In this document: positions 11,335 to 64,000 of the stretch, piece by piece
How positions within the stretch are numbered: the first letter of the stretch is position 1
Layout: each line of letters begins with the position of its first letter
Position numbers and translations under genes: made by a program
Notes under the pieces: model-generated
Databases searched by the model: none
Told to the model about the DNA's origin: nothing
Seen by the model: only the letters and a program-made list of their open reading frames with translations
Assembly (NCBI RefSeq): GCF_963676685.1
Contig: NC_092351.1
Span: 31,000,001 to 31,064,000, forward strand
Length of the DNA: 64,000 nt
Source: Mytilus edulis
Taxonomy: Eukaryota
Direction of reading: 5' to 3'

Positions 11335-13647
11335 CTAACCAACAATTTGCCCAGTGCCAATATTTGACGGACGAAGCTCGACAACAACTGGATGTGCAGA
11401 CATTTTTATATCCAAGACGGTTCCGTTGACAGATACATTCGTCTTATTAATTGCGGGAAACTGACCTGTAAATTTATGTACCGAAACGTGATCGATGGCA
11501 CTACCTAGCTGTACACGAATCGTTGAGATAGACACTTCAGAAATATCTACAGGTTTCCATGCTACAATGTGTGAGGCATGCTGGAGGAGTTGTTGTCGTG
11601 ACATAGACGACCCTGTCACGTGAGCTTGAGATGACCCGAATAAATAAACATAACCATTGTCATTTTCTTGGTAAATTCCTAAGAAGTATTTGTCACCAAT
11701 AAGATTAAGTATTCCTTCAAAAGCATAAAATACATTTTTCTTCACAAAGTTATGCGTTGTGGAAGCAGTTAAGCCACTTCGACAGAACAATGTATGACAA
11801 TACTGCGAATTTGCATAGAAAAACCATGTGACTTTTTGGACGTTAGATCTCGCGAGAATTAGAAGTCCTCTTATACCGTACAATGCTTGCGCTGCTTCCG
11901 ATACACACTCAGGAAATGTGCAGCTTTCTCCTTTACCATCGGCATCCCATCCCCATTCAGTCACCCATATCGGCTTTGATGGCATATTACTATCTCTCCA
12001 TCGAACTATGTTTCTTATGCTGTTAAATGAAGAATCTGGGTGTTCTGGATAAGTTCCTATGCGAACTCCGTTACTGTTTGTTCTGAAGCTATAGGTGTGA
12101 AAATTAACCACACTAATGTTCACAGCAAGATTCTGTGTAACGCGAGTGCCAATGTAGTTTCCAGTATCATGCTTATCGTGAGCCTGGAAAGCGCCAGGAA
12201 GAATTTTGATTTTCGGATCGATTTCTTTTAGACCTGCACTCATACCTTTTAAAATCTTATTGTAAAAACTCGCCTCATAATCCCAAGGTTCGTTACCGAT
12301 TTCAACTGCGTCAACCAGGCCATTACCATGAGCTGCACCAAAATGGCGAGCAAAATGTTTCCCTAAATTGAACGCTTCTATTTCGGGGCTTTGCCAAACT
12401 TTCTGAGGAAAAGACTTATTCGTAAACTGAAATGAAACATCGATCACAAGGTTTGCTTTTCGCCATGCGGAATATTCAGTATCCCAATTAAGCCAACTTT
12501 TAGCCTGGGTACCATGGTTATTTTCCATTTCGCAATACTGAGGGTCTTTACTTGGACTTGTAACGTCCCAGTCTAAGTTATGATAATTTCTTGCATGTGA
12601 AGCAACGGCATTGTATAAATTTGGACCTTCATTGCTGTTCAACAAACTACTGTATTTACTGTGTTGCCACCCCCATATACCATTGACTCCAAGTATATTC
12701 CTTATTGTGTTTTTCTGTGTATTAGCAATAACTGGTTTGCCCCATAACGTTAAATGATCCCATGCGTCAATCTCCCAACAATAAACTTTTTCATAGTTCT
12801 TTTGGAACAGTTGATACTCTAGTTGGATGTATCGAACGGTCCTCGCTGGACTTAAGTCTGTGTTGACGGCATGCAGTGCATTTGGAATTAATGACACGTT
12901 ATGAGTAAAGGCAATGTTGTCAGCCGAAAATAGCATCGTTAGAACAGTTGCGGAATTAGACCCGGCCCAATGTCTTGTCCGAACCATTCCGACTTCTCTT
13001 AGCGTTCCCAAATCCACGGTTATACGTTCCCTGCAGCCCTTTGAGCCAATTGAGGCGATTTCTTTTAGCTGAAAGTTGCTATTTGATTCCAATAATATTT
13101 CTTTTACGTTGTCGAGAACCTTCGTGATTGTGATTTGTTTATAATTGTCAGCATGCTGCAAAGATTTCAAAACTTCTGTTGTTGCATTCCAGTAAGTAAC
13201 ACGTAGCTCTGTTTCAGTTTTATAGATACCCCATACCGATAATAAATGTAGATCTATTGGAGTTAGGAAATGTATCATCATTTTGGCTTTTTGTTGACCT
13301 GTTGTGTTAGTGTTTACATTTACATTTGACAATGTATAGAAATTTCCATCCGTCAACTTTACCAGGTCATTTGCAGGTCCACATTCAGCACTACAATGGC
13401 CATTGCTACAGGCATTTAGTAGGATGTTTTCGTCAGCACGTGGTACATACCCTGATGGAAGACATGATCCAGAAGTCCAATGTGTGTTGTCATCATTGTC
13501 TATTATATTTGCAGCATGGTTTGCACCAGATGTAGCCTTTACAGACACTCCCGGCATTTTGGTCCAAGATGGAACATACCCAGCATCAGGATCCCAAGAG
13601 TAAACCGACAGTATAAACACAAGAAGAAGCAGGCACTCTTTCTCCAT
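11335..13647 (-). CDS. Secreted 770-aa protein: F5/8-type C (discoidin/CBM32-like) domains plus a clan GH-A-like glycoside hydrolase domain
   Basis: Single long ORF. The true start is probably the ATG at 13647 (MEKECLLLLVFILSVYS, a signal peptide), just inside a splice acceptor (tttcag, exon starting 13659). Discoidin motifs: AANIIDNDDNTHWTS, ITVDLG, RYIQL, WEIDAW. Putative acid/base motif EIGNEP and nucleophile motif PIWVTEWGW. AATAAA on the minus strand near 11256-11261. Confidence 0.85.
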   Translation of the reverse strand: MEKECLLLLVFILSVYSWDPDAGYVPSWTKMPGVSVKATSGANHAANIIDNDDNTHWTSGSCLPSGYVPRADENILLNACSNGHCSAECGPANDLVKLTDGNFYTLSNVNVNTNTTGQQKAKMMIHFLTPIDLHLLSVWGIYKTETELRVTYWNATTEVLKSLQHADNYKQITITKVLDNVKEILLESNSNFQLKEIASIGSKGCRERITVDLGTLREVGMVRTRHWAGSNSATVLTMLFSADNIAFTHNVSLIPNALHAVNTDLSPARTVRYIQLEYQLFQKNYEKVYCWEIDAWDHLTLWGKPVIANTQKNTIRNILGVNGIWGWQHSKYSSLLNSNEGPNLYNAVASHARNYHNLDWDVTSPSKDPQYCEMENNHGTQAKSWLNWDTEYSAWRKANLVIDVSFQFTNKSFPQKVWQSPEIEAFNLGKHFARHFGAAHGNGLVDAVEIGNEPWDYEASFYNKILKGMSAGLKEIDPKIKILPGAFQAHDKHDTGNYIGTRVTQNLAVNISVVNFHTYSFRTNSNGVRIGTYPEHPDSSFNSIRNIVRWRDSNMPSKPIWVTEWGWDADGKGESCTFPECVSEAAQALYGIRGLLILARSNVQKVTWFFYANSQYCHTLFCRSGLTASTTHNFVKKNVFYAFEGILNLIGDKYFLGIYQENDNGYVYLFGSSQAHVTGSSMSRQQLLQHASHIVAWKPVDISEVSISTIRVQLGSAIDHVSVHKFTGQFPAINKTNVSVNGTVLDIKMSAHPVVVELRPSNIGTGQIVG

Positions 13648-15967
13648 CTCTGTTTTCACCTGAAACAATTAATTATTCTGGATGAGTATTTAAATCACAA
13701 CAACTACTAACGAGAGTTTGAGAGTAAATATAAATGAGACAGTATCTAATATGAAAATATACAGAAAATATACAGAAAATATACATCTGGCTGTTTATCA
13801 TTATTGTCTCGTTCAAAATACATACATGCATGTATTATAAGATTGTCACAGTGGAAAAATGGACAAAAATTGATTTGAGACTTTTCGGACATTTTGTAAA
13901 AGATTTTGTAAAATCACTGTTTTGTTATATTTGCAATATTTCACTAAGGGATTTTGTTATTTTTATTGTGCAAGCTTAAGATTTAAGTCAAGTTTAGAAA
14001 ATTAAGCTAATCTAATTTCATGTTTTAATTTTTTTTTCAATTAGCGACATTTTACTTCAAAATGATATATGAAAACCAAACATTTAATTCCATCAATAAG
14101 TCTGAATGTTCTTTTGTTAATTATTTTCTATGTGTTACTTTTTCTGTAATCCCTTAATTGAATTTTCTTACTCATTTAGAGAAATATTTGTCAAGTCTAT
14201 TCAAGTAGTTTTTGGTCTGTTATATAAACTATGTTGTTATTTTAATGTGGCAGATTGGATTTATTATTACACTGAGCAGTTCCAACTCTGTACAATTGTA
14301 TTCCATGCTGAACTTATTAAATTATACATCGCGCTAACCAGAGTCGTCTTTTGTTACAAGAGCTAGTCCCAGAGTTAGAGTCCGTGCAGACTTGTCATAC
14401 TGTTTATTGTGTGTGTGTGGTTCCAGGCCAACACATTTCCCAGTCACAGATACACCCAGTTTCTGTTTGTGACAAGATCATGCGCTTAGATAAAACCAAG
14501 AAGAAACAAATCAAATGTATCAAAATGATTAAAGCAGTAACCAATGTCTTACGCTAAAGTTAAACAATTAACCTCGTGTTTAAAATTATGAATATTATTC
14601 AATATAATCTTATGATAGATATTCACCAACTTACTTCAATCTTATCTCGTACACTGTATAAATTATGACAATATATGTGTCTGATAATTACAAGTTAGTA
14701 CATACTTCGAGACTTAAACACGAGGAGTTATTTCTAACCGGAATTACGACGGAAAGAAAAGGAAACTAACTACAATAAAATGTTGTTTAATGACAAATGT
14801 ATTCGTCAATCTGTTTAGGATGGTATCATATTGAGGAAACAATTTGATATGATACTTCTAGACATTAAACACGTTTCAGGATAGGGGTCAATTGTATTTA
14901 TCGTGCCACAGTTCCTTATAAATGGCAATTGGAAAGCACTTTGAACAATTATATTTCATATAGTGTTTAGAAATAACTCTTTGTTATTTAAAACATAAAA
15001 CTAGCAGTCAATTTTGTCAAAATAACTTTTAAATTTGTGTTAATGGCTATGCCTGTTGCCCAATCCAATTCAAATTATTTGAATAAAATAATTACTAAAC
15101 TAACACACACAAACACATGTCTATTATATAGTATTTATCAAAGTTACACCCATCATGTTCTTATTGTATGTTTATCTGTAAGAATTTATTTTGATTGTCT
15201 TATTAAGAATACGTACGAAAAGTAGAAATATCAAGCTAGAATATTACACAGAAGGGGCGATGTTGGATATGCAGGACATATAATTATGGGCCAAGAACAT
15301 CAAGCAGAACATATAGAAATGAGACTATTTTGGTGGGGGAAATAATGAATAAATAAATGAAAGCTCAAAATGGCATAAGCTTTAAGAAGACAGATATAAA
15401 GACCCTCTATCCAATATCTCAGATTATCTTCAATGTATATAAAATGGCTTATTCTTTTAAAGATATGATGTCATGTAATAATGTTATTCTTATTTCAGAA
15501 CATACAAATATTCTTATCTGGTCATATAGACACAAAAACACTGGAAATGGAAATTGAAAAATATAAACTTTCAGAATGTCGATGATTCTTATCAGCTGAT
15601 CGTTTGAGAATATATATACTTCGTCAACTTTTAAGTTCATGATTCATCTTCAATAACAAAAACTTAGAAAATCGGTAACCAACGAATGATAATGAATCCA
15701 CAGTATATAAATTTAAAATGCAGATGAAAATATAATGTATATTCCCATTTATTTAAAACGAGCACTCCACATCTTATTTTGAATGCAAACTATTTAAATG
15801 TATTAATCTATACAATGTAATAAAATATGTTTACATTTGTTCAGTATAATTGAATGTATAGAATAGAAAGTACCGAAAACCTTTCACAAAGAAAATATTT
15901 ATAGCAAGCGTAAAGAAGGAAGTTTATATACCAAAAAGTTAAAATGAGCCATACCAGCACTCTTTTG

Positions 15968-51063: not shown

Positions 51064-54000
51064 TTATAAACTGTTTTTCGCATCCTCAGCTGTTACATCA
51101 TTCCAGTTTTCTGGCAATTCTGGTACTTTTGTGTTGCTTTTTTTCGAAATTTCATTTTTAAATGTTTTGAAATACCACATCCAGTATTTAGAAGGCTTAT
51201 AAATTGGCGTAATCTCCCAATCTGGAAACTTTGTTCTGTAATGTTTGTATTTATGGGTTTTGTTTGAGTCTGATAATATAAAATCCTTTCGACTTTGATG
51301 AATTAAATGGTTACATATATCAGTAACTAGCTCCCCACTGCCATTCTCCCATGCATATTCACCTACGCCTTGTGGACGATGTTGTTTACAACTGTGCTTT
51401 AATGAATCTAAGTGATTGTCATTGTATTCACAGGGTTCGCTACAAAAAGGACAGGTAGCACAACACCCCCAAAGTCTTTCAAATATAGAAGTGTATGGCT
51501 CTTTTTTCCATCGAATAGTTTCTTGTGTGGTATCAGTCACTATTTTCAATAGGCTTACTTTTGTTGAAGAAATCTCCTTAAGAACAGTTCTTCTAAAGTT
51601 TTCAATATCAGTAACATTTCTTTTCCCCACGTGTTTAAGTTTTTCCTTTGTAATCGGCAATAATTTTGAACTTGTAATGAACTCTTCAATCCACGCAGAT
51701 ATCCGATCACCGAACTTTCCTTTTATTTTATCAGTTGCGTTGTTTACAGAACTTATCACGTCCTCTATTGCGTTATCTACAATGAATTTACTTAATAATT
51801 TATAGTTCATGACTTTTTGCCCGTCCCTTTCAAATAAACATTTGTTTGTGTAGTTGAGAAGCCAAATTTCAACAAAAGAAGCAGGAGAAGTAATGTACAC
51901 ACTAAAATGGTCAAAACTGTTCTTGTCGATCAGATCTTTCATCACCGATTTAATTAAATTATATTTTGAATATTCAAATGATTTCCAAATTTCGGCCTCC
52001 ACTTTACTAGGTAAAATCTCGTATATTTGCTCCAACACACTAGATTTGATTGCCTTCTGAAAAAAATTCCCTGCTATAACGTCTTCAGTTTTCTTTTGAA
52101 CGAGATCCACAAACAATTTCAGGGCTGTTTCTTTATATTCCTCCAGTTTTATTCGTGGATTATGCTTTTGGTCATATTGTCTATTAATGTCTATAAATTC
52201 TTTGGTAGAGTAAGCTGCAATTTTTGTCAGTATCATGGCTTTATATTGTGCTTTTAATCGGAATTGATGATCATTGTCTTTATGGTCATTATGCTGAGTA
52301 ATTTCTGACTCAACCATTTTCATTATGTCACTCATAAAGACTACATTGAATTCCACGTCTTTAAAACGTAGCTTTTTCAAATAGGTCTCAATCTTTAAAA
52401 ATAACTTGTCAGTAAAATCCACAGTTTGATTGATGCATACCGCAGGCTTTTCTAAATTCATGCATCCTGTCAGCAAACTCTTCTTAATACTTATATGACT
52501 GTCCAAATGTATATCATTAAATACAACAAGACCATACAAGTTTGACATTTGTATGCAATCGTTAATTGTGAGATCTTCTAATTCTTTGTAAAAATTACCG
52601 TGTCCATAAATATTATTTCGAACTAATCTTTTTATTTCATCAAAAACCTCATCAGGCTCTTTGGCAGCATCTACTGGTGTCGTAGAGCATTTGGCAATCC
52701 ACGATAACCATCCTTCATCAAATCGAGCATGCAATATATTTTCAGAGACTGCAGTTTCATTGCTATCATTGAACTCTTCAGCTAGTGTAGTGGCATAGCT
52801 GTTTATTTCATCCTCGCATTTTTGTATTGCCTTTTCACATTCGGTGAATTGTTTTATCTCATTTTGAATCAACTCTATTTCCCTGCCTGACCTATCAGAA
52901 AGCGGTTTCATGGATGTCTGCAGCTTCAAGGAATATCCTTGTTTCCATTTCAACATTATATTCTTCAATGTATGTCTTTCAATGAATTCATCAAATTCGT
53001 TTTCTGCTTTTTCGAATTCATTGGTAAGAAATTCAGGTAAATTGTTTCGCACAGTCGCTATCAACCCGTCAAATTCTGATTCGCTTTTACATTTGAGAAG
53101 AAAACATCTCTTTTCCCGAACAAAGTTGTACAATTTCGATTCTAATCCCCAGTACAATTCTTGGTAATATTTATCTAATTTAGTAAATGCTTTAGCTTCA
53201 AGGTTATTTTTAAAGCTAAAAGCAAAATCCTCCGTTAGAATTCCATTCCAAATGTCTTCTATTTTTGATGCGGTGTCTTTGAGTGAAAAGTACGCTTGGC
53301 GCTTTCGTGCTATGTCATATATAATTGTCTCCCTAATCGTTGTTATATGTGCGCTGTAAGATGGACTAATCCGTGTAACTGGCTGTTCACCAGTAGAAAA
53401 ATTAGGCAAATACCACACGTACTTCTTATCAAAATCAATAACCTGATTAAAATAATTTATATCGGAGATATCGAGTTGATCTGCTGCTTCCGCTGTCATT
53501 TCATCTAGAGTGTTTATCATGTGTTGTATATTGTATTCCAAAGCACTATCGATGCCTCCTTCAGTCTTCACATTCTGGTGTATAAAAACACATGACTGTT
53601 TTAAGTTTAAACTATCACTCGCTGTTTTCATTTTCAAAAGTGCATGAACTACCATTTGCAGTACTTCTTTCATTTCGCCCTGTGATTCACCGTTAATGTT
53701 AACAATATTTATATCCGCTATGCCCATGATAAATGTTGCAAATTCGTTGTCATGCTGGTAGTTCTCGTGACCTAGTTCTGGTGCTCGCAGACCTTCAGTA
53801 TCAATAACTATAATGAATTCAAAATCAAGTTTTTCGTCATGGACAGGTATCAGCTGCATAAATGCTCCTTTTGTAACTCTTCCATGTCCAACAGGAAACT
53901 GGAGTCCAAACATGGTGTTTAGTAATGTCGACTTTCCTGAACTCTGTATTCCTACTACTGATACAACTAAACATTTCCTGTCGCAAATTAATTCTGCTAC

Positions 54001-57000
54001 CTCGTTCAAAACTGCTTTAACCCATACAATTGGTACATGTATAAGATCGCCATTCATCACTTCAAATTGTACTCCTCCTAAAAGAAGTTTAGCTGGTATG
54101 CAAGGGAAGTGTTTCACTAGATTCTTGGTTTCAACAGAGACTCGTGATTCTTGGTCTGCAGTTGCTTCATAAACTTGTCCCATTTCCCGAATAAAATGCT
54201 CAAATCCCAATTGTCCTGCAAGAAAGTCTAATTCATCATTGTGTACATTCGCCTTAAAAGCTTCAACTTCATTTGAATTACTCTGTTTTGCAGCCTTTAA
54301 CTTTTCTATACTTTTTATATATTTAGCATGACAAACAGACATGTTCTCCCGTGTAAGCTTTTCTAGATAAACTTTTAGCCAAAGGGCAAAGTTAATCAAT
54401 TCTTCTTCATCAAATTGAAGGTAATTGAGAACAGTTTCTAAAAATAAATGCATCAAAGGGTGCAGAATAGGTAACCTCTTCACTTGTTCCATTCGCAAAG
54501 ATGAAATTGCTTGCTTTATTTCTACTTTGTGCTTTGGGGATTTGTATTCAGAAGGTTTATATAACCTTTTCATATTCTTACTTAACAAATTCAAAATATC
54601 CCCCTGCATTGGAAGTACATCACGTTTGATACTAAAGGTAGTACTAAAACTGTCAAGCAATTCTTTTATTTTCCTCGTAACTCTCTGTCCTCGTTGACTA
54701 AAATCATTTTGCAAAACTATTTTTGATTCTCCTAATATAACTGTCAGACTTTTGGTTGGCACCTTACTAAATAAATCCTGAAATTTGAAATCAATATCAT
54801 TCTTTATATCAGCTGATTTTCTTTCTTGTCCATCCATCGAAATTAATCCAAATTTGGTCTTCTTATGGTCAATTGATTTCTCTTTATATTTGTCAGTGAT
54901 TTGTTTAACATTTTCTTTTGATCTCTTTTGTGCATCTATCATCAAAGCAACAGTTGATTTTGATGAATAAAATGTTTGAAGCAATTTCTGTGTTTCGTCA
55001 CTTTCAAGCGATTCGATAGTAATAAAAACCACTACACCGGAAGATAACAGAGATAATATATTTAACTGTTCTTTAAAACAAGTACCATCACCTCGTAAGT
55101 TCAGTATCATTGTTCTTTTCTCACAATTCCTTCCCTTTTCACTTTTCAGATATGGATTAAAAAAGGTAGCCTCAATTAGACCCTCGCCTATTGTTCTTTT
55201 GGAACGCCCAAATGGTGAACAGTAGTTTAAAAACACATCATGATTTTCGTTTGAAATTATATCATTAATGATTTTAGATTTTGAAACCTTTGGACAGCCA
55301 ACTCGGATAAAAGATAAAATGTTGCATGGACAGTCAGCTGCTGGAATTTGTTTGTTTCCCGACGTAGATATGAAAACAGAGTTGAAAAAGCTTACGGACG
55401 GAGCCGTTAAATATTCGTCGGGTAACACTAGTGGTACAGCTAATCTGCATGTATACATTTTTGAAGCAAGCGCCTGCTTTAAAGTCTCTGATGAACATAA
55501 AAACAGCGCGACCATCAAGTCCAAAGCATTCAAATTTTCAAATAAGTTGTCATTTTCATTTAACGTCGAAACATTATCATCTTCTTCAAAATCATCAAAG
55601 ATATCAAAATCATCCGAAGCTTTACGCTTATTTTCGTTTTGGAATTCTTGTACATGTTCCTCTAGAATTTTATATATAGAAGAATGCTGTGTCATTATTT
55701 TCTGTAACAAAAACCACAACAGATTTTGTTTCTTTTTATTAGTTGTTCTTTCATCAATTGTCACAGAATCAAGCACATTAACTGTTGATGGCATCCGCAT
55801 TTCGGTAAGAAAATTCTTAACTTTGTCTTGAACAGTTTTCCGAGATGATTTGGTAATTGGGATATCTCCCTTTTGGCCACTTTCGTTCTGTTTAATGATA
55901 AACTTTGGAAGTGAATACATTTTACGGTTTGTATGTGTTCCATTAATGAACGGTAATAGATCATCTTGAAGCTGAAGCCAGTTGTAGGGAGACTTCTCAG
56001 TATTTACGCCAATGGCCGATTTAATATCGTTTTCTAACACTGGTTCCAATGCATGGACGCATTTGATGAAGATTTTTTCGAATGATTTAGATTTGTTCCT
56101 TGTTATATTTTTCACGATGAAGTCTATAAGACATGCTTGATCTTGGACTTTAGATTTTTTTGGTAAGTTGTTAAATTCATGAATTATTTGTTCTGATTCC
56201 GCAATGAATGTTTTTAAATCTGATTCAGAAAGAAGTTGTGGAAATCCACATGTTTCATCAAAACGTAAGCGTGAGAGAATAGACATAAGAATGACAAATT
56301 CACGAACATTTTTTGATTTGAATTCTATTAATATTCGGTGGCATACAGTTGTCATTTCACTAGTGATGTAAAGTTCAGCTGTTTGTTGGCTCCTATGCCG
56401 TTCCATCGTATCAATGTCTTCTATTTCTGGAAGGAATTTCGTCTTCAACACAGACATAAACGTATTTATATCTTCTATGCTTTCAGTAGATAAGGCACTT
56501 GGCAGATCTTGGAACTTTGCATTCACTTTAGCAATCCATAACATCAACGTTGGTCTGTCTTTCAAGAAAACATACTTCAAATGACTTAATAATAAAGAAA
56601 TTTCGTGTTGCATCTTAGCGCATTGCATTTGATCCTGTAATTCATCAGAAAATGCAACCTGTTCAAAGAAGTGTTGTACCTTAACATTTGATTCTACTAA
56701 ACTTTTGAAAAATCCATCGTCTTTAGTAAGGTCGAATAATCTATCTATTGATTTACAAAGTGTTGGCAAAATGGAACTAAAGTCTGTTAATTCAAACGTG
56801 TCAATGCAGCTTTCAAATATTTCCATGTTCCACGCGCATTGCATAAAATCAGCTAAATCAAATACATTATAAAAGTCAGTTTTATGATTCTTAAGTACTT
56901 CCCAAATCCCAATGAATTCACCTCTTGAAATTAGCGACCAAGTTCCATTTTCTGTAGTCAATCTCTGAACCCATTTTCCATAATCAGTCTCATCATGTGG

Positions 57001-58395
57001 TCCTCCTATGGGATTAATGTTTAGCTGCACTTTTGACAATTCTTCCTCCGTATGATTTTTTACAATACTGCTGTTACCTGAGAGATACTTTCCTGATACA
57101 CCAATGCCAATAGCTGGTCCCGGCCCTGTATAACCCATGCTGGTAAATCCATCCAAGGAATCGTTTACTAATTCCTTTCTGGAATTATTTGAAGATTTAA
57201 TCGAAGAAGTATAAGAAGCTTTCCATTTAAAAACTCCACCAAAGTGCAGTATTCCCATGTTAATGTGACTACCATAATTTTGAAAGAACCTTTTGCATTG
57301 AGACAGACTTTTCATACAGATCGCATTACCCTGTAATCCAGATTCAATGGTTTGTAAGGTTTTAATAGCATTTGATATTAAATGAATATTTTCTATCTTA
57401 AATTCATAAGATTTGACTGGCACGAATGCATATTTTTCTCTTGACTGATAAAATTCTTCTGAACTGGTGGTGTTAGTATCGTCGATGTTCTTCATTGATG
57501 TGAAAGATCCTTGTAATTTCATGCTAAAAATTGGAAACCCAATATGAGCAAATAACCTTGCATTTTTGCCAGTTGTTTGCAAAGACCTCTGAAATGTATC
57601 ACTCTTCTCTCTAGACGAAAATTCAACAAACTGAACTTCCTGTTTCATTGATGGTCCCTGGAATGTTACATCACCGACTAAATCGATGACTATACCCTTC
57701 ATTTCTGTGATTGAATCTATACATTGATTTAAATGGATCCCCCTTAAGGCACAACTACTTGATGAATGACTTAAAACTTCTCTATCAGTTAAATGTGTCG
57801 TTTTTACGTCCCTACTACTGTGTATAGGTTGTAAATTTTTAAGTTTCGTGTCTAAATCCAGATCATGTCGGGAAGTTTTCCAAGATTCACCAGGTTCTAA
57901 TGCTGACGTCAGGGAACTGGCTGTATTATGGAAATCGTCCTTAAAATTATTGTTATCAGGTTGAAACTCATCTGATACTTCTTTTGCAGTTCTCTTCGGA
58001 GCAGCATTGTCGCTCTTGTCTTTTCCAAAATTGTCTTTTATAATTTGTTTCAAAGCTTCATTATCCAAATCATTGCGTATACTTGATTGAAGTTTTTTCA
58101 AATGACTGTCATTAAGATATTTTAGCTGTATGGTATTGGTTAAGCCAAGCTTTCTTTCAAATACTTCTGACCAATACTGATGATCTAGTCCATACTCATC
58201 CTTAAGTCTATTTTGCAACTTCAGTTTGTCAGCTTTCAGTTCGGTTTCTTGACTTGTTTCATGTGTTTTATTGTCATGCAATCCTCCTTTTGAGTGTTTC
58301 GACTCGCTATTTTTGTCATCAACTGCGACAGTCTCTGTGTTTGTGGCTTGTAACATATTTGAGGAAGGGTTTTGGCTGGTTTGTTGTGATGCCAT
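51064..58395 (-). CDS. GVIN1: Interferon-induced very large GTPase 1-like (GVIN/VLIG), 2443 aa, single coding exon
   Basis: VLIG-type GTPase motifs GIQSSGKSTLLNTMFG (G1), DTEGL (G3) and HQNV. GVIN-like N-terminus (YW..KLGL..LKYL) and C-terminal GCCATCPFCSEPC..H..HRPQG. Splice acceptor (ttttcag) 146 nt upstream of the ATG, with the exon starting at 58541. Confidence 0.93.
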   Translation of the reverse strand: MASQQTSQNPSSNMLQATNTETVAVDDKNSESKHSKGGLHDNKTHETSQETELKADKLKLQNRLKDEYGLDHQYWSEVFERKLGLTNTIQLKYLNDSHLKKLQSSIRNDLDNEALKQIIKDNFGKDKSDNAAPKRTAKEVSDEFQPDNNNFKDDFHNTASSLTSALEPGESWKTSRHDLDLDTKLKNLQPIHSSRDVKTTHLTDREVLSHSSSSCALRGIHLNQCIDSITEMKGIVIDLVGDVTFQGPSMKQEVQFVEFSSREKSDTFQRSLQTTGKNARLFAHIGFPIFSMKLQGSFTSMKNIDDTNTTSSEEFYQSREKYAFVPVKSYEFKIENIHLISNAIKTLQTIESGLQGNAICMKSLSQCKRFFQNYGSHINMGILHFGGVFKWKASYTSSIKSSNNSRKELVNDSLDGFTSMGYTGPGPAIGIGVSGKYLSGNSSIVKNHTEEELSKVQLNINPIGGPHDETDYGKWVQRLTTENGTWSLISRGEFIGIWEVLKNHKTDFYNVFDLADFMQCAWNMEIFESCIDTFELTDFSSILPTLCKSIDRLFDLTKDDGFFKSLVESNVKVQHFFEQVAFSDELQDQMQCAKMQHEISLLLSHLKYVFLKDRPTLMLWIAKVNAKFQDLPSALSTESIEDINTFMSVLKTKFLPEIEDIDTMERHRSQQTAELYITSEMTTVCHRILIEFKSKNVREFVILMSILSRLRFDETCGFPQLLSESDLKTFIAESEQIIHEFNNLPKKSKVQDQACLIDFIVKNITRNKSKSFEKIFIKCVHALEPVLENDIKSAIGVNTEKSPYNWLQLQDDLLPFINGTHTNRKMYSLPKFIIKQNESGQKGDIPITKSSRKTVQDKVKNFLTEMRMPSTVNVLDSVTIDERTTNKKKQNLLWFLLQKIMTQHSSIYKILEEHVQEFQNENKRKASDDFDIFDDFEEDDNVSTLNENDNLFENLNALDLMVALFLCSSETLKQALASKMYTCRLAVPLVLPDEYLTAPSVSFFNSVFISTSGNKQIPAADCPCNILSFIRVGCPKVSKSKIINDIISNENHDVFLNYCSPFGRSKRTIGEGLIEATFFNPYLKSEKGRNCEKRTMILNLRGDGTCFKEQLNILSLLSSGVVVFITIESLESDETQKLLQTFYSSKSTVALMIDAQKRSKENVKQITDKYKEKSIDHKKTKFGLISMDGQERKSADIKNDIDFKFQDLFSKVPTKSLTVILGESKIVLQNDFSQRGQRVTRKIKELLDSFSTTFSIKRDVLPMQGDILNLLSKNMKRLYKPSEYKSPKHKVEIKQAISSLRMEQVKRLPILHPLMHLFLETVLNYLQFDEEELINFALWLKVYLEKLTRENMSVCHAKYIKSIEKLKAAKQSNSNEVEAFKANVHNDELDFLAGQLGFEHFIREMGQVYEATADQESRVSVETKNLVKHFPCIPAKLLLGGVQFEVMNGDLIHVPIVWVKAVLNEVAELICDRKCLVVSVVGIQSSGKSTLLNTMFGLQFPVGHGRVTKGAFMQLIPVHDEKLDFEFIIVIDTEGLRAPELGHENYQHDNEFATFIMGIADINIVNINGESQGEMKEVLQMVVHALLKMKTASDSLNLKQSCVFIHQNVKTEGGIDSALEYNIQHMINTLDEMTAEAADQLDISDINYFNQVIDFDKKYVWYLPNFSTGEQPVTRISPSYSAHITTIRETIIYDIARKRQAYFSLKDTASKIEDIWNGILTEDFAFSFKNNLEAKAFTKLDKYYQELYWGLESKLYNFVREKRCFLLKCKSESEFDGLIATVRNNLPEFLTNEFEKAENEFDEFIERHTLKNIMLKWKQGYSLKLQTSMKPLSDRSGREIELIQNEIKQFTECEKAIQKCEDEINSYATTLAEEFNDSNETAVSENILHARFDEGWLSWIAKCSTTPVDAAKEPDEVFDEIKRLVRNNIYGHGNFYKELEDLTINDCIQMSNLYGLVVFNDIHLDSHISIKKSLLTGCMNLEKPAVCINQTVDFTDKLFLKIETYLKKLRFKDVEFNVVFMSDIMKMVESEITQHNDHKDNDHQFRLKAQYKAMILTKIAAYSTKEFIDINRQYDQKHNPRIKLEEYKETALKLFVDLVQKKTEDVIAGNFFQKAIKSSVLEQIYEILPSKVEAEIWKSFEYSKYNLIKSVMKDLIDKNSFDHFSVYITSPASFVEIWLLNYTNKCLFERDGQKVMNYKLLSKFIVDNAIEDVISSVNNATDKIKGKFGDRISAWIEEFITSSKLLPITKEKLKHVGKRNVTDIENFRRTVLKEISSTKVSLLKIVTDTTQETIRWKKEPYTSIFERLWGCCATCPFCSEPCEYNDNHLDSLKHSCKQHRPQGVGEYAWENGSGELVTDICNHLIHQSRKDFILSDSNKTHKYKHYRTKFPDWEITPIYKPSKYWMWYFKTFKNEISKKSNTKVPELPENWNDVTAEDAKNSL

Positions 58396-59074
58396 ATTCA
58401 GGTTTGTGATTTTATTGTTCTATTTAAGTTATATTAAGGTCGATATTGTTATTACGTGGTACAAAATTAATGTCTCCTTGATCTCCATTGTAGTTCCCAT
58501 TATCCATCATCTCTTACTATCTTTCATATCATTTGGGTGCTCTGAAAACAAAAGTTTGAGAAAATCAGGAAAATGACAGCTCAGTAACAATTGATACGAA
58601 AACAACACATTACATGTATATAAATTCTTTTAAATTCTTATAATACGTACATATTTGTAATGTAATTATATACATAAACTCAACATATATACCAGGACTA
58701 AATTTTGTATATATGCCAGACGCGCGTTTCGTCTACAAAAGACTTTTAAGTGACGCCCGAATCCAAAAAAGTTAAAAATGCCAAATAAAGTACGAAGCTG
58801 AAGAGTATTGAGGACCAAAATTCCAAAAAGTTTTGCCAAATACAGTTAAGGTAATCTATGCATGAAGAAGAACAGCCTTAGTATTTCAAAAGTTCTAAAT
58901 TTTCGAACAGTAAATTTATAAATATAACCATATCAATGATAACTCATGTCAGTACAAAAGTGCTGACTACTGGACTGGTGATACCCTCGGGGAAATAAAT
59001 CTCCACCAGCAGTGGCATCGACCCAGTGGTAGTAAATAAACTCATCATAGATACCACGACTAAATTTTGTATAT

Positions 59075-59118
59075 ACGCCAGACGCGCGTTTCGTCTACAA
59101 AAGACTCTTCAGTGACGC
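59075..59118 (-). ncRNA. Type I hammerhead ribozyme (intact CUGAAGA core)
   Basis: GCGUCA-CUGAAGA-GUCU UUUGU AGAC-GAAA-C GCGC G-UC-UGGCGU. Confidence 0.85.
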
Positions 59119-60161
59119 TCGAATCCAAAAAAGATTAAAATGCCAAATAAAGTACGAAGCTGAAGAGTATTGAGGACCAAAATTCCAAAAAGTTTTGCTA
59201 AATACAGCTAAGGTAATCTATGCCTGAGGTAGAACAGCCTTAGTATTTCAAAAATTCTAAGTTTTGTAAACAGTAAATTTATAAATATAACCATATCAAT
59301 GATAACTCATGTCAGTACAAAGGTTCTGACTACTGGGCTGGTGATACCCTCGGGGAAAAAAATCTCCACCAGCAGTGGCATCGACCCAGTGGTAGTAAAT
59401 AAACTCATCATAGATACCAGGACTAAATTTTGTATATATGCCAGACGCGCGTTTCGTCTACAAAAGACTTTTCAGTGACGCCCGAATCCAAAAAAGTAAA
59501 AAATGCCAAATAAAGTACGAAGCTGAAGAGTATTGAGGACCAAAATTCCAAAAAGTTTTGCCAAATACAGTTAAGGTAATCTATGCATGAAGAAGAACAG
59601 CCTTAGTATTTCAAAAGTTCTAAATTTTCGAACAGTAAATTTATAAATATAACCATATCAATGATAACTCATGTCAGTACAAAAGTGCTGACTACTGGAC
59701 TGGTGATACCCTCGGGGAAATAAATCTCCACCAGCAGTGGCATCGACCCAGTGGTAGTAAATAAACTCATCATAGATACCACGACTAAATTTTGTATATA
59801 CCCCAGACGCGCGTTTCGTCTACAAAAGACTCTTCAGTGACGCTCGAATCCAAAAAAGATTAAAATGCCAAATAAAGTACGAAGCTGAAGAGTATTGAGG
59901 ACCAAAATTCCAAAAAGTTTTGCCAAATACAGCTAAGGTAATCTATGCCTGAGGTAGAACAGCCTTAGTATTTCAAAATTCTAAGTTTTGTAAACAGTAA
60001 ATTTATAAATATAACCATATCAATGATAACTCATGTCAGTACAAAGGTTCTGACTACTGGACTGGTGATACCCTCGGGGAAATAAATCTCCACCAGCAGT
60101 GGCATCGACCCAGTGGTAGTAAATAAACTCATCATAGATACCAGGACTAAATTTTGTATAT

Positions 60162-60205
60162 ACGCCAGACGCGCGTTTCGTCTACAAAAGACTCTTCAGT
60201 GACGC
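60162..60205 (-). ncRNA. Type I hammerhead ribozyme (intact CUGAAGA core)
   Basis: Same sequence as 59075-59118. Confidence 0.85.
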
Positions 60206-60961
60206 TCGAATCCAAAAAAGTAAAAAATGCCAAATAAAGTACGAAGCTGAAGAGTATTGAGGACCAAAATTCCAAAAAGTTTTGAAAATACAGCTAAGGT
60301 TATCTATGCTTGAGGTAGAACAGTCTTAGTATTTCAAAATTTCAAAATTTTGTAAACAGTAAATTTATAAATATAACCATATCAATGATAACTCATGTCA
60401 GTACAAAAGTGCTGACTACTGGGCTGGTGATACATATTATCATCCTTATTACGATGATAATCGCTAGCTATGCTCAAAGTCCCATATCGCTCAAGTTTTA
60501 AAAAATACTTTTATCACGTCTGTAATCGTTGCTGTCAGTATAAAAGTGAAAAATCGGCTGCAAAAATTGAGTCAGATGCAAATGTTTGATCTTGAAAATT
60601 ATCTTCATGTCATTTTACATAACAATCTCTGAACATATTAAGTCAGTCGGAAATTTGTTATCCCATACTGCTTGTAATATGTGTAATTATGAAATCCCTC
60701 CCTAAAAAAAAAGATATATAATAAAGGAACAGTGTTCAAATGTCCTCAACGTTGTAATATTTTATCTTTTCAAGGTAAAGAGTCAATCTTTTAAAAAAAT
60801 GTGGTTCTTTAAAATTTATTTTCATTAATGTATTTGAGAAATAAAGGCCAAGCTGCAAATACGGTGTGATTTCCATCATAACATATATTTCCCAAGGACA
60901 TTCCTCTTTAATAAATGGGAAATATGTCCATGGGACATAGATGGTGCTCCCGATTGCATAT

Positions 60962-62984
60962 AAAAACCAGATGCTCCGCAGGGCCCAGCTTTATACGGCC
61001 GCGGAGGTTGAACCCTGAACAGTTGGGGCAAGTATGGACACAACATTCAAGCTGGATTCAGCTCTAAATTTTGATTGTGATTAAATAGTTGACACATCAT
61101 AGGTTTCTGACACAGAATGAATGTGGTCTAATGAACTTAAAAACTTTTGTTTTGCCTTTAAGCAATTCACTATGCTGTTGAATATTAATCCTCTCAAATA
61201 AATTGAAGAAATTTTCTTTTTATTTATGAAATCTGAAATGAGAAAAATTGACACACCCCCCAATTTTTTTTTCACAATCCCCTTTCCCTTATTCTAAAAC
61301 TGATCTCAATTCAAATTTCTAACGGTCCCTAGCAATAACTACTCATTTAAATACATCATAAAATATTAAAATGTAAAAAAACTGCTTGTTATCACTGAAT
61401 GGTAAAGATTGTTTTAATTTATCAGTTGGTAGTAAAAGTGAATATACATTGTCTATTGTATAAACCAATGATTTAAGTTGATTCAACTACTATTCTGGAC
61501 AAAGAAAGATAACTCTAGTTGAAATTTCTTGCTATTGCGCAATATTGTACAATTAGATATTTCTTGCTATTGCGCAATACTGTGCAATTGAAAATACTTC
61601 CCATTGCACAAAAATCGTGCAATTGAAGATTTCTTGCTATTGCGCAATACTGTGCAATTGAAAATTTCTTGCTATTAGACAATACTGTGCAATTGAAGAT
61701 TTCTTGCTATTACTGAATACTGTGCAATTGAAAATTTCTTGCTATTGCACAATACTTAATATAATAATTTTGGATCCTGATTTGCACCAACTTGAAAACT
61801 GGGACCATAATCAAAAACCTAAGTACATTTTTAGATTCAGCATATCAAAGAGGCCCAAGAATCCAATTTTTGTTAAAATCAAACTTAGTTTAATTTTGGA
61901 CCCTTTTGACGTTAATGTAGACCAATTTGAAAACGGGACCAAAAATTAAGAATCTACATACACAGTTAGATTTGGCATATCAAAGAACCCAAATCATTCA
62001 ATTTTTAATGAAATCAAACAAAGTTTAATTTTGGACCCTGATTTGGACCAACTTGAAAACTGGGCCAATAATCAAAAATCTAAGTACATTTTTAGATTCA
62101 GCATATCAAAGAACCCCAATCATTCAATTTTTGTTAAAATCAAACTAAGTTTAAATTTGGACCCTTTGGACCTTTATGTAGACCAATTTGAAAACGGGAC
62201 CAAAAATTAAGAATCTACATACACAGTTAGATTCGGCATAACAAAGAACCCATATTATTCAATTTTTGACGAAATCAAACAAAGTTAAATTTTGGACCCT
62301 TTGGGCCCCTAATTCCTAAACTGTTGGGACCAAAACTCCTACAATCAATCCCAACCTTCCTTATATGGTCATAAACCTTGTGTTCTAATTTCATAAATTT
62401 CTATTTACTTATACTAAAGTTATGGTGCGAAAACCAAGAAAATGCTTATTTGGGCCCCCTTTTGGACCCTTATTCCTAAACTGTTCGGACCTCAACTCCC
62501 AAAATCAATCCCAACTTCCTTTTGTGGTTATAAACCTTGTGTTTAAATTTCATTGATTTCTATTTACTTATACTAAAGTTATTGTGCGAAAACCAAGAAT
62601 AATGCTTATTTGGGCCCTTTTTTGGCCCCTAATTCCTAAACTGTTGGAACCAAAACTCCAAAAATCAATCCCAACCTTCCGTTTGTGGTCATAAACCTTG
62701 TGTCAAAATTTCATGGATTTCTATTTACTTAAACTAAAGTTATAGTGCGAAAACAAAGAAAATGCTTATTTGGGCCCTTTTTGGTCCCTAATTACTAAAA
62801 TGTTGGAACCAAAACTCCAAAAACCAATCCCAACCTTCCTTTTGTGGTTATAAACCTTAGGTTGAAATTTCATAGATTTCTATTCACTTTTACTAAAGTT
62901 GGAGTGCGAAAACTTAAAGTATTCGGACGACGACGACGCCAACGTGATACCAATATACGACCAAAAAATTTTTTCGTATAAAAA
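60962..62984 (-). mobile_element. Helentron-type HINE with internal tandem-repeat arrays
   Basis: Subterminal TATACG(A/G)CC motifs at both ends, A-runs at the termini, and a (GAC)n microsatellite near 62925. Internal tandem repeats of about 35 nt (61525-61755), about 230 nt composite (61770-62300) and about 153 nt (62300-62920). Confidence 0.8.
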
Positions 62985-63310
62985 GTTGTAAAGAACAACA
63001 CTGAAGAAAGGTAGAGACGCTATCCAAACTACTTGTTCTGAGTTTTGTGGTAATCAGTTATGTGCATATGTCTCATAACATTTGGTTAAGGCTAAATTAT
63101 GTTAGAGAACAGGAACAAATACATGGGATATGTATGTGTCAATAGGACACAGATGATGCCCAAACTTGCATTTATTGTCATAAAAGAAGATAACTTTAGA
63201 ACGGTAAAAGTAAAACTACCCTAGTCGTACTTGATCTTCGTCTTGTTGTTATTAGCATTGTGTATAAGTTCCATAAAATTTGCTTGAGAAGCAAATTCAA
63301 ATTAGAAAAC

Positions 63311-64000
63311 AACCAGATGCTCCACAGGGCGCAGCTTTATACGACCACAGAGGTCGAACCTTACACAGTTGGGGCAAGTATGGACACAACATTCAAGCTT
63401 GACACAGCTCTGAATTTGGAATGTGATTAAATAATTGACACAGCATTGGTTTCTGAAACAGAATGAATGTGGTCTAATAAATTTTGGATTGATTCAGCAT
63501 ATCAAAGAATCCCAACAAAGTTCAATTTTGGACCCTTTTGACCTCAATGTGGACCAATTTCATAACAGGGCACAACAATCAAAAATCTAAATACTCGGTT
63601 AGATTAATCATACCAAAGAACCCCATACATTCAATTTTTGTTGAAATCAAACTAAGTTAAATTTTCGACCCAAATTTGGACTAACTTGAAAACTGGGCCC
63701 ATAATCAAAAATCTAAATACATGTTTAAATTCAGCATTTCAATGAACCCCAAGAATTCATTTTTTTTATTAAAAACAAACTAAGTTTTATTTTGGACCCT
63801 TTGGACCATAATGTAGACCAATTTGAAAACGGGACCCAACATTAAAAATCTAAATACACCGTTAGATTCGGCATATCAAAGATAATAATAATTATTAATA
63901 ATTTTATTTTTGATGAAATCAAACAAGGTTTAATTTTGGACCATTTGGACCTCATGTGGACCAATTTAAAAAACGGGGACCAAATTTCAACCAGGTGCTC
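63311..64000 (-). mobile_element. Further copy or copies of the same HINE family, running off the window
   Basis: AACCAGATGCTCCACAGGGCGCAGCTTTATACGACCACAG at 63311. The terminal motif AACCAGGTGCTC restarts at the last bases of the window. Confidence 0.75.

Follow-up and report, generated by a model that had tools for sequence, protein, structure and literature searches.

A 64,000-nucleotide stretch of the Mytilus edulis genome (NC_092351.1, positions 31,000,001 to 31,064,000; hereafter the window) carries on its minus strand a gene for a very large GTPase of the GVIN/VLIG class, in the N-terminal part of which a MACPF (perforin-like) domain is predicted. The explanation favored here, at a probability of about one-half, is that this long GVIN is a cytosolic perforin delivered by its own GTPase coat. 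It is based on the predicted fold, its motifs, the pattern of two putative transmembrane hairpins (TMH1 and TMH2), and a missing signal peptide, to which we add by inference oligomerization, membrane insertion, and control by GTP. The product is a GVIN/VLIG GTPase by both marks of that class, a length of about 2,400 residues in a single coding exon (here 2,443 in one open reading frame, ORF) and the presence of URGCP and URGCP_GTPase domains (scores of 154.6 bits against a cut-off of 27 and 329.1 bits against 55). Among the named relatives matched, the closest is a Mytilus edulis protein. The G1 and G3 motifs are intact in the same ORF as the MACPF domain, as expected from the fusion that had been proposed from the DNA letters alone (the original prediction).

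A predicted MACPF fold with a variant signature

The motifs quoted in the original prediction are real, and all fall within the minus-strand ORF. The interval given for them, 56893..57750, corresponds to residues 216-501, and the folded domain is somewhat larger (about residues 201-531). Conservation was examined in 133 sequences, namely the query and 132 whole-domain clusters taken from 150 listed of 362, and reached 133 of 133 for some residues. According to the accessible part of PMC7593815, the MACPF consensus is Y-X6-[FY]-G-T-H-[FY]; the mussel sequence carries this as a variant, C-X6-Y-G-S-H-I, with a GG pair 7 residues on. A [FY]G[ST]H-x6-8-GG motif was found in 124 of the 133 divergent sequences, with Gly-375 and Gly-386 invariant, His-377 present in 128, and Gly-464, Trp-475, and Trp-498 each present in 132. 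The quoted stretch VQLNINPIGGP spans residues 456-466 (56998-57030, minus strand) and contains core strand 4 and the GGP, and IGIWEVL spans residues 495-501 (56893-56913, minus strand) and includes Trp-498.

A structural match to the MACPF fold, which had been set as the decisive test, was obtained both in the predicted model and in fold searches. The model contains the bent four-stranded antiparallel sheet with two flanking helical clusters expected of the MACPF branch. The proteins closest to it in fold are all pore-formers, namely MPEG1, pleurotolysin B (top Foldseek match, E = 2.5e-12), C8, and C9; Astrotactin-2 was also matched. The family profile aligns with C8 alpha across the signature and both TMH regions. 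That the motifs are a chance resemblance in a region that is not MACPF is thus highly improbable and was refuted computationally, even with the points in its favor: sequence identity to solved MACPFs is just 8-16%, the mussel protein itself gives no match to the Pfam MACPF family (PF01823, cut-off 21.5 bits), and searches of PDB sequences with the single sequence and with a 5-sequence profile returned no match for the domain. Among its kin, a paralog scores 20 bits against PF01823, one bird GVIN scores 23.1 bits, and 21 of 54 relatives reach E ≤ 0.01. The domain is therefore filed as MACPF by its predicted fold and not as a member of PF01823. Matches of the family profile to gp41 (E = 2e-4) were rejected as coiled-coil matches; they fall on positions 75-142 of the profile, mostly the helical stretch before the core sheet. 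Mean identity to 43 full-length relatives is 31% in the MACPF core, 15% in the next domain, 24% in URGCP, and 45% in the GTPase core, and as judged by these alignments the MACPF core evolves under constraint.

Distribution of the domain

A bird GVIN domain used as query matched 472 proteins. A precomputed PF01823 label was present on 4 of 120 listed matches, all 4 from birds, and one of these was reproduced in local Pfam searches; judging from the coverage of partial proteins, PF26771-3 would fall outside the MACPF region. Among 150 listed representatives, 66 match the GTPase and 8 match just URGCP; 7 more are long but match neither, and the other 69 terminate no more than 450 residues from the domain. 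A P-loop occurs in 53 of the 57 representatives that have at least 1,100 residues after the domain.

Searches of the mussel's own genome with PF25683 gave 21 matches at no fewer than 20 loci, two of the matches being adjacent pieces of one locus. The MACPF domain, searched for with two queries, coincides with only 3 of these 20, all in ORFs of 2,400-2,451 residues, and was not found by the same searches at the other 17. Inspection of 4 of the 17 found the domain absent from both the ORF and the 3-4.5 kb upstream. The suggestion that the motif may be general to GVINs therefore holds to the extent that the domain extends well beyond this locus; in the form "general to all GVINs," it was rejected. 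From the sequences compared, the domain marks long GVINs and also occurs without a GTPase. Two further own-genome matches lie in neighboring genes (L008 2035-4776 and L009 1823-4696; G000:C6, 63.24 and 63.17 Mb) that contain a GVIN-type MACPF with no GTPase within 9.9 kb; one is broken by a stop and the other by frameshifts. Both are about 50% identical to a 1,026-residue Mytilus coruscus protein without a GTPase, named "MACPF domain-containing" in UniRef. Four relatives without a GTPase (P0129-P0132; 1,026-1,346 residues) have slightly shorter TMHs (51 and 54 residues), and two of them have a hydrophobic C-terminal end, a candidate tail anchor. Another representative, P0135 (1,113 residues), has two MACPF-like stretches, either a tandem domain or a gene-calling artifact. 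At least 30 further Pfam MACPF matches occur in the mussel genome, with no GVIN-type domains among them.

In mammals, the fold match is known at the level of supplement and database: a MACPF match for GVIN1 is already in the supplement of PMC8986115, the main text of which never names GVIN. The functional human GVIN1 ORF is given as 1,808 residues in the accessible part of its description. The human construct appears to start about 110 residues past the MACPF domain and thus to be without it, a point that is new here.

Putative transmembrane hairpins

In MACPFs, two helical clusters unfurl to form amphipathic hairpins (PMC7593815, accessible part). The two Ser/Thr/Gly-rich stretches in which TMH1 and TMH2 had been expected were found at residues 260-314 and 398-455, between core strands 1 and 2 and core strands 3 and 4, respectively. 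Both have a median length of 55 residues and are at least 48 residues long in 125 and 128 of the 133 sequences, and at 17-18% mean identity to the 43 full-length relatives it is the pattern that is kept rather than the sequence. Alternation of hydrophobicity is weak in single sequences (mean z of 0.09 and 0.46); of 60 shuffles, 9 and 28 did as well as the mussel protein itself. The family-averaged profile shows two adjoining alternating arms in each TMH (residues 276-283/288-295 and 414-421/427-434). On a binary scale, none of 500 column shuffles attained this result for either TMH; on the Kyte-Doolittle scale, 17 of 500 did so for TMH1 and 0 of 500 for TMH2, compared with 282-487 of 500 for three control segments. 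This test was devised after the single-sequence test, and its shuffles ignore relatedness among the sequences. The capacity for amphipathic hairpins is thus seen at the family level only, where the hairpins look pore-competent, a point also new here. A three-copy complex of residues 201-528, modeled without an alignment and without controls, scored 0.00 against a mark of 0.32, which is evidence neither way.

A non-lytic domain of the kind proposed for astrotactin-type MACPFs, stabilizing the GTPase coat as an oligomerization scaffold or shallow membrane anchor, would accord with the match to Astrotactin-2 and with the weak alternation in single sequences. It would also accord with three points that weigh against a coat-delivered perforin: human GVIN1 functions without the domain, most VLIG loci of the mussel lack it, and the MACPF fold, as in astrotactin, need not lyse. 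The near-constant TMH length and two-arm alternation are nevertheless maintained at identities to the query of only 22-35%, a pattern that is difficult to account for unless the segments insert into membranes, and the top fold matches are pore-formers. On balance, we regard a scaffold as somewhat unlikely.

Transcripts, 5′ end, and cellular location

The ORF is expressed, as seen in contigs from 4 of 24 listed runs, which show presence only; four runs with almost no matching words were left aside. Contigs X1 and X5, from two studies with the RNA type guessed, end at 58541 and 58542, at the pyrimidine tract and CAG of a splice acceptor; X5 has 244 extra letters that have no placement on the window. 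Contig X12, recorded as RNA-Seq, covers 54941-58155 unbroken.

Signal peptides were judged by 9-residue hydropathy and by the in-frame stop upstream of the ATG. The maximum hydropathy in residues 1-60 is 0.32, against 3.67 in a control ORF, and a polar N terminus is also common in relatives, a value of 2.0 being reached in just 2 of 87. The stop sits between the splice acceptor and the ATG, and therefore no upstream exon can contribute a signal peptide. The absence of a signal peptide noted in the original prediction is borne out, and the secretory entry that is a hallmark of the MPEG1, perforin, and C6-C9 subfamilies is missing. Given the polar N terminus and the upstream stop, a cytosolic location is likely. 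Six upstream ATGs (ORFs of 2-28 codons) lie in the 146-nucleotide 5′ untranslated part of the coding exon (58396-58541, minus strand), possibly a means of regulating the translation of a protein that could do harm. The DNA upstream of the gene (58600-64000) is highly repetitive and was matched by thousands of contigs.

A cytosolic location would also suit a pore directed at the host, in which the GTPase half senses infection and the MACPF domain, once set free or uncovered (a cut after the helical domain is one possible route), kills the infected cell or ruptures a vacuole, much as gasdermins do. The order of N-terminal pore fold, compact helical domain, and low-confidence linker (about residues 834-841 in the AlphaFold2 model) fits such a scheme, as does the existence of GTPase-less relatives, half of those described above having a hydrophobic C-terminal stretch; the gasdermin N-terminal domain is not the nearest fold. 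We consider this explanation unlikely.

Other features of the gene and the window

Features of the gene are collected in Table 1. The N-terminal region is possibly SAM-like, which is offered as a lead only, and the helical domain is a candidate brake or spacer. The C-terminal Cys/His-rich domain is likely metal-binding; its Cys/His cluster at residues 2310-2341 (51373-51468, minus strand) is kept in mussel and bird GVINs and is likely a zinc site. Elsewhere in the window, a 777-codon open frame at 11335-13668 (minus strand) has a hydrophobic, signal-peptide-like start and a sub-threshold F5/8 type C match, and NEP and TEWG motifs in its C-terminal half presumably recall a clan-A glycoside hydrolase.

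Table 1. Features of the mussel GVIN gene (window positions; aa, residues; pLDDT, predicted local distance difference test)
Feature	Position	Strand	Evidence
GVIN/VLIG giant GTPase coding sequence	51064..58395	-	Single exon, ORF plus stop; entire ORF covered by contigs X1 and X5
C-terminal Cys/His-rich domain, aa 2310-2443	51067..51468	-	Sequence; 32% mean identity to 43 relatives
URGCP/VLIG GTPase region, aa 1273-1681	53353..54579	-	PF25683, E 4.4e-98; G1 aa 1482-1489 (53929-53952), G3 aa 1532-1535
URGCP domain, aa 956-1224	54724..55530	-	PF25496, E 4.7e-45
All-helical domain, aa 532-820, then linker to ~850	55846..56802	-	AlphaFold2 pLDDT 86.8
MACPF domain, aa 201-531	56803..57795	-	Predicted fold
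Core strand 4, GGP, then helix with W475/L479, aa 456-479	56959..57030	-	G464 132/133, G465 130/133, W475 132/133
TMH2, aa 398-455	57031..57204	-	Model; family beta alternation
TMH2, predicted membrane-crossing hairpin, ~aa 414-437	57085-57156	-	
MACPF signature variant (YGSHI-x7-GG) FFQNYGSHINMGILHFGG, aa 370-387	57235..57288	-	Aligns with same motif in complement C8 alpha
TMH1, aa 260-314	57454..57618	-	Between strands E53-59 and E115-132 of model, partly pLDDT <50; family beta alternation
TMH1, predicted membrane-crossing hairpin, ~aa 276-297	57505-57570	-	
N-terminal region, aa 55-200	57796..58233	-	Common to other long GVINs; sub-threshold SAM_TNK matches in two relatives
Splice acceptor and 5′ untranslated region	58396..58544	-	Pyrimidine tract, CAG at 58544-58542; in-frame stop at 58422-58420

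Proposed mechanism and comparison with known systems

In the coat-delivered perforin that we favor, the C-terminal ~1,800 residues would assemble as a coat on cytosolic microbes, a step borrowed from human GVIN1. Crowding in the coat would let adjacent MACPF domains join edge to edge, after which TMH1 and TMH2 would open out to form a beta-barrel or an arc within the outer membrane of the microbe. GTP would control targeting and assembly and not the hairpins directly, and the coat would stand in for the membrane-binding domain used by perforin or MPEG1. Tentatively, and at slightly less than even odds, long GVINs from molluscs to birds and rodents may be cytosolic perforins that have been overlooked as a class, the human gene having been cut down to the coat alone. 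In the available part of the human study, the GVIN1 construct coats bacteria and lowers their numbers only modestly; the lack of a MACPF domain would explain both this modest killing and the need for co-factors. This reading of long GVINs as coat-delivered cytosolic perforins, and of the human protein as a form lacking the payload, was not found in the literature searched.

Of the four families of interferon-inducible GTPases, GVINs are described as the least understood (bioRxiv 10.1101/2025.03.24.645074, accessible part). A fused, apparently pore-competent MACPF would provide them with a direct and testable effector mechanism. We know of no animal perforins other than secreted or lumenal ones, which, if the proposal is true, would be joined by a cytosolic, microbe-directed member. 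A species difference is predicted: full-length mouse, bird, and mussel GVINs would permeabilize coated bacteria, whereas the 1,808-residue human protein would not. With the fold match already in a supplement, the value of these results lies in the mechanism and its testability rather than in the locus.

Among known systems, pleurotolysin B and complement C8/C9 rely on a partner for targeting. They are secreted and have separate targeting subunits, whereas the mussel GVIN likely has its targeting part fused. To our knowledge, GBP1 has no pore-forming domain; long GVINs would differ from its coat in holding a lytic payload in the same chain. GBP1 is likewise a large GTPase; it forms coats on Gram-negative bacteria in the cytosol and harms them only with the help of co-factors (bioRxiv 10.1101/2025.03.24.645074, accessible part). 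MPEG1/perforin-2 (PDB 6SB3 and 6U23) acts in the phagolysosome, where it is held by a transmembrane anchor and also has a lipid-binding MABP domain, whereas the mussel GVIN lacks a signal peptide and MABP and has 1,900 more residues, including a GTPase. Compared with mammalian GVIN1/VLIG-1 (Q7Z2Y8, Q80SU7, and A0A0G2JTA4), of which the human functional ORF appears to be MACPF-less, the mussel gene is intact. Gasdermins are alike in being cytosolic and in their layout, with a pore fold belonging to the same superfamily at the N terminus and a helical domain after it.
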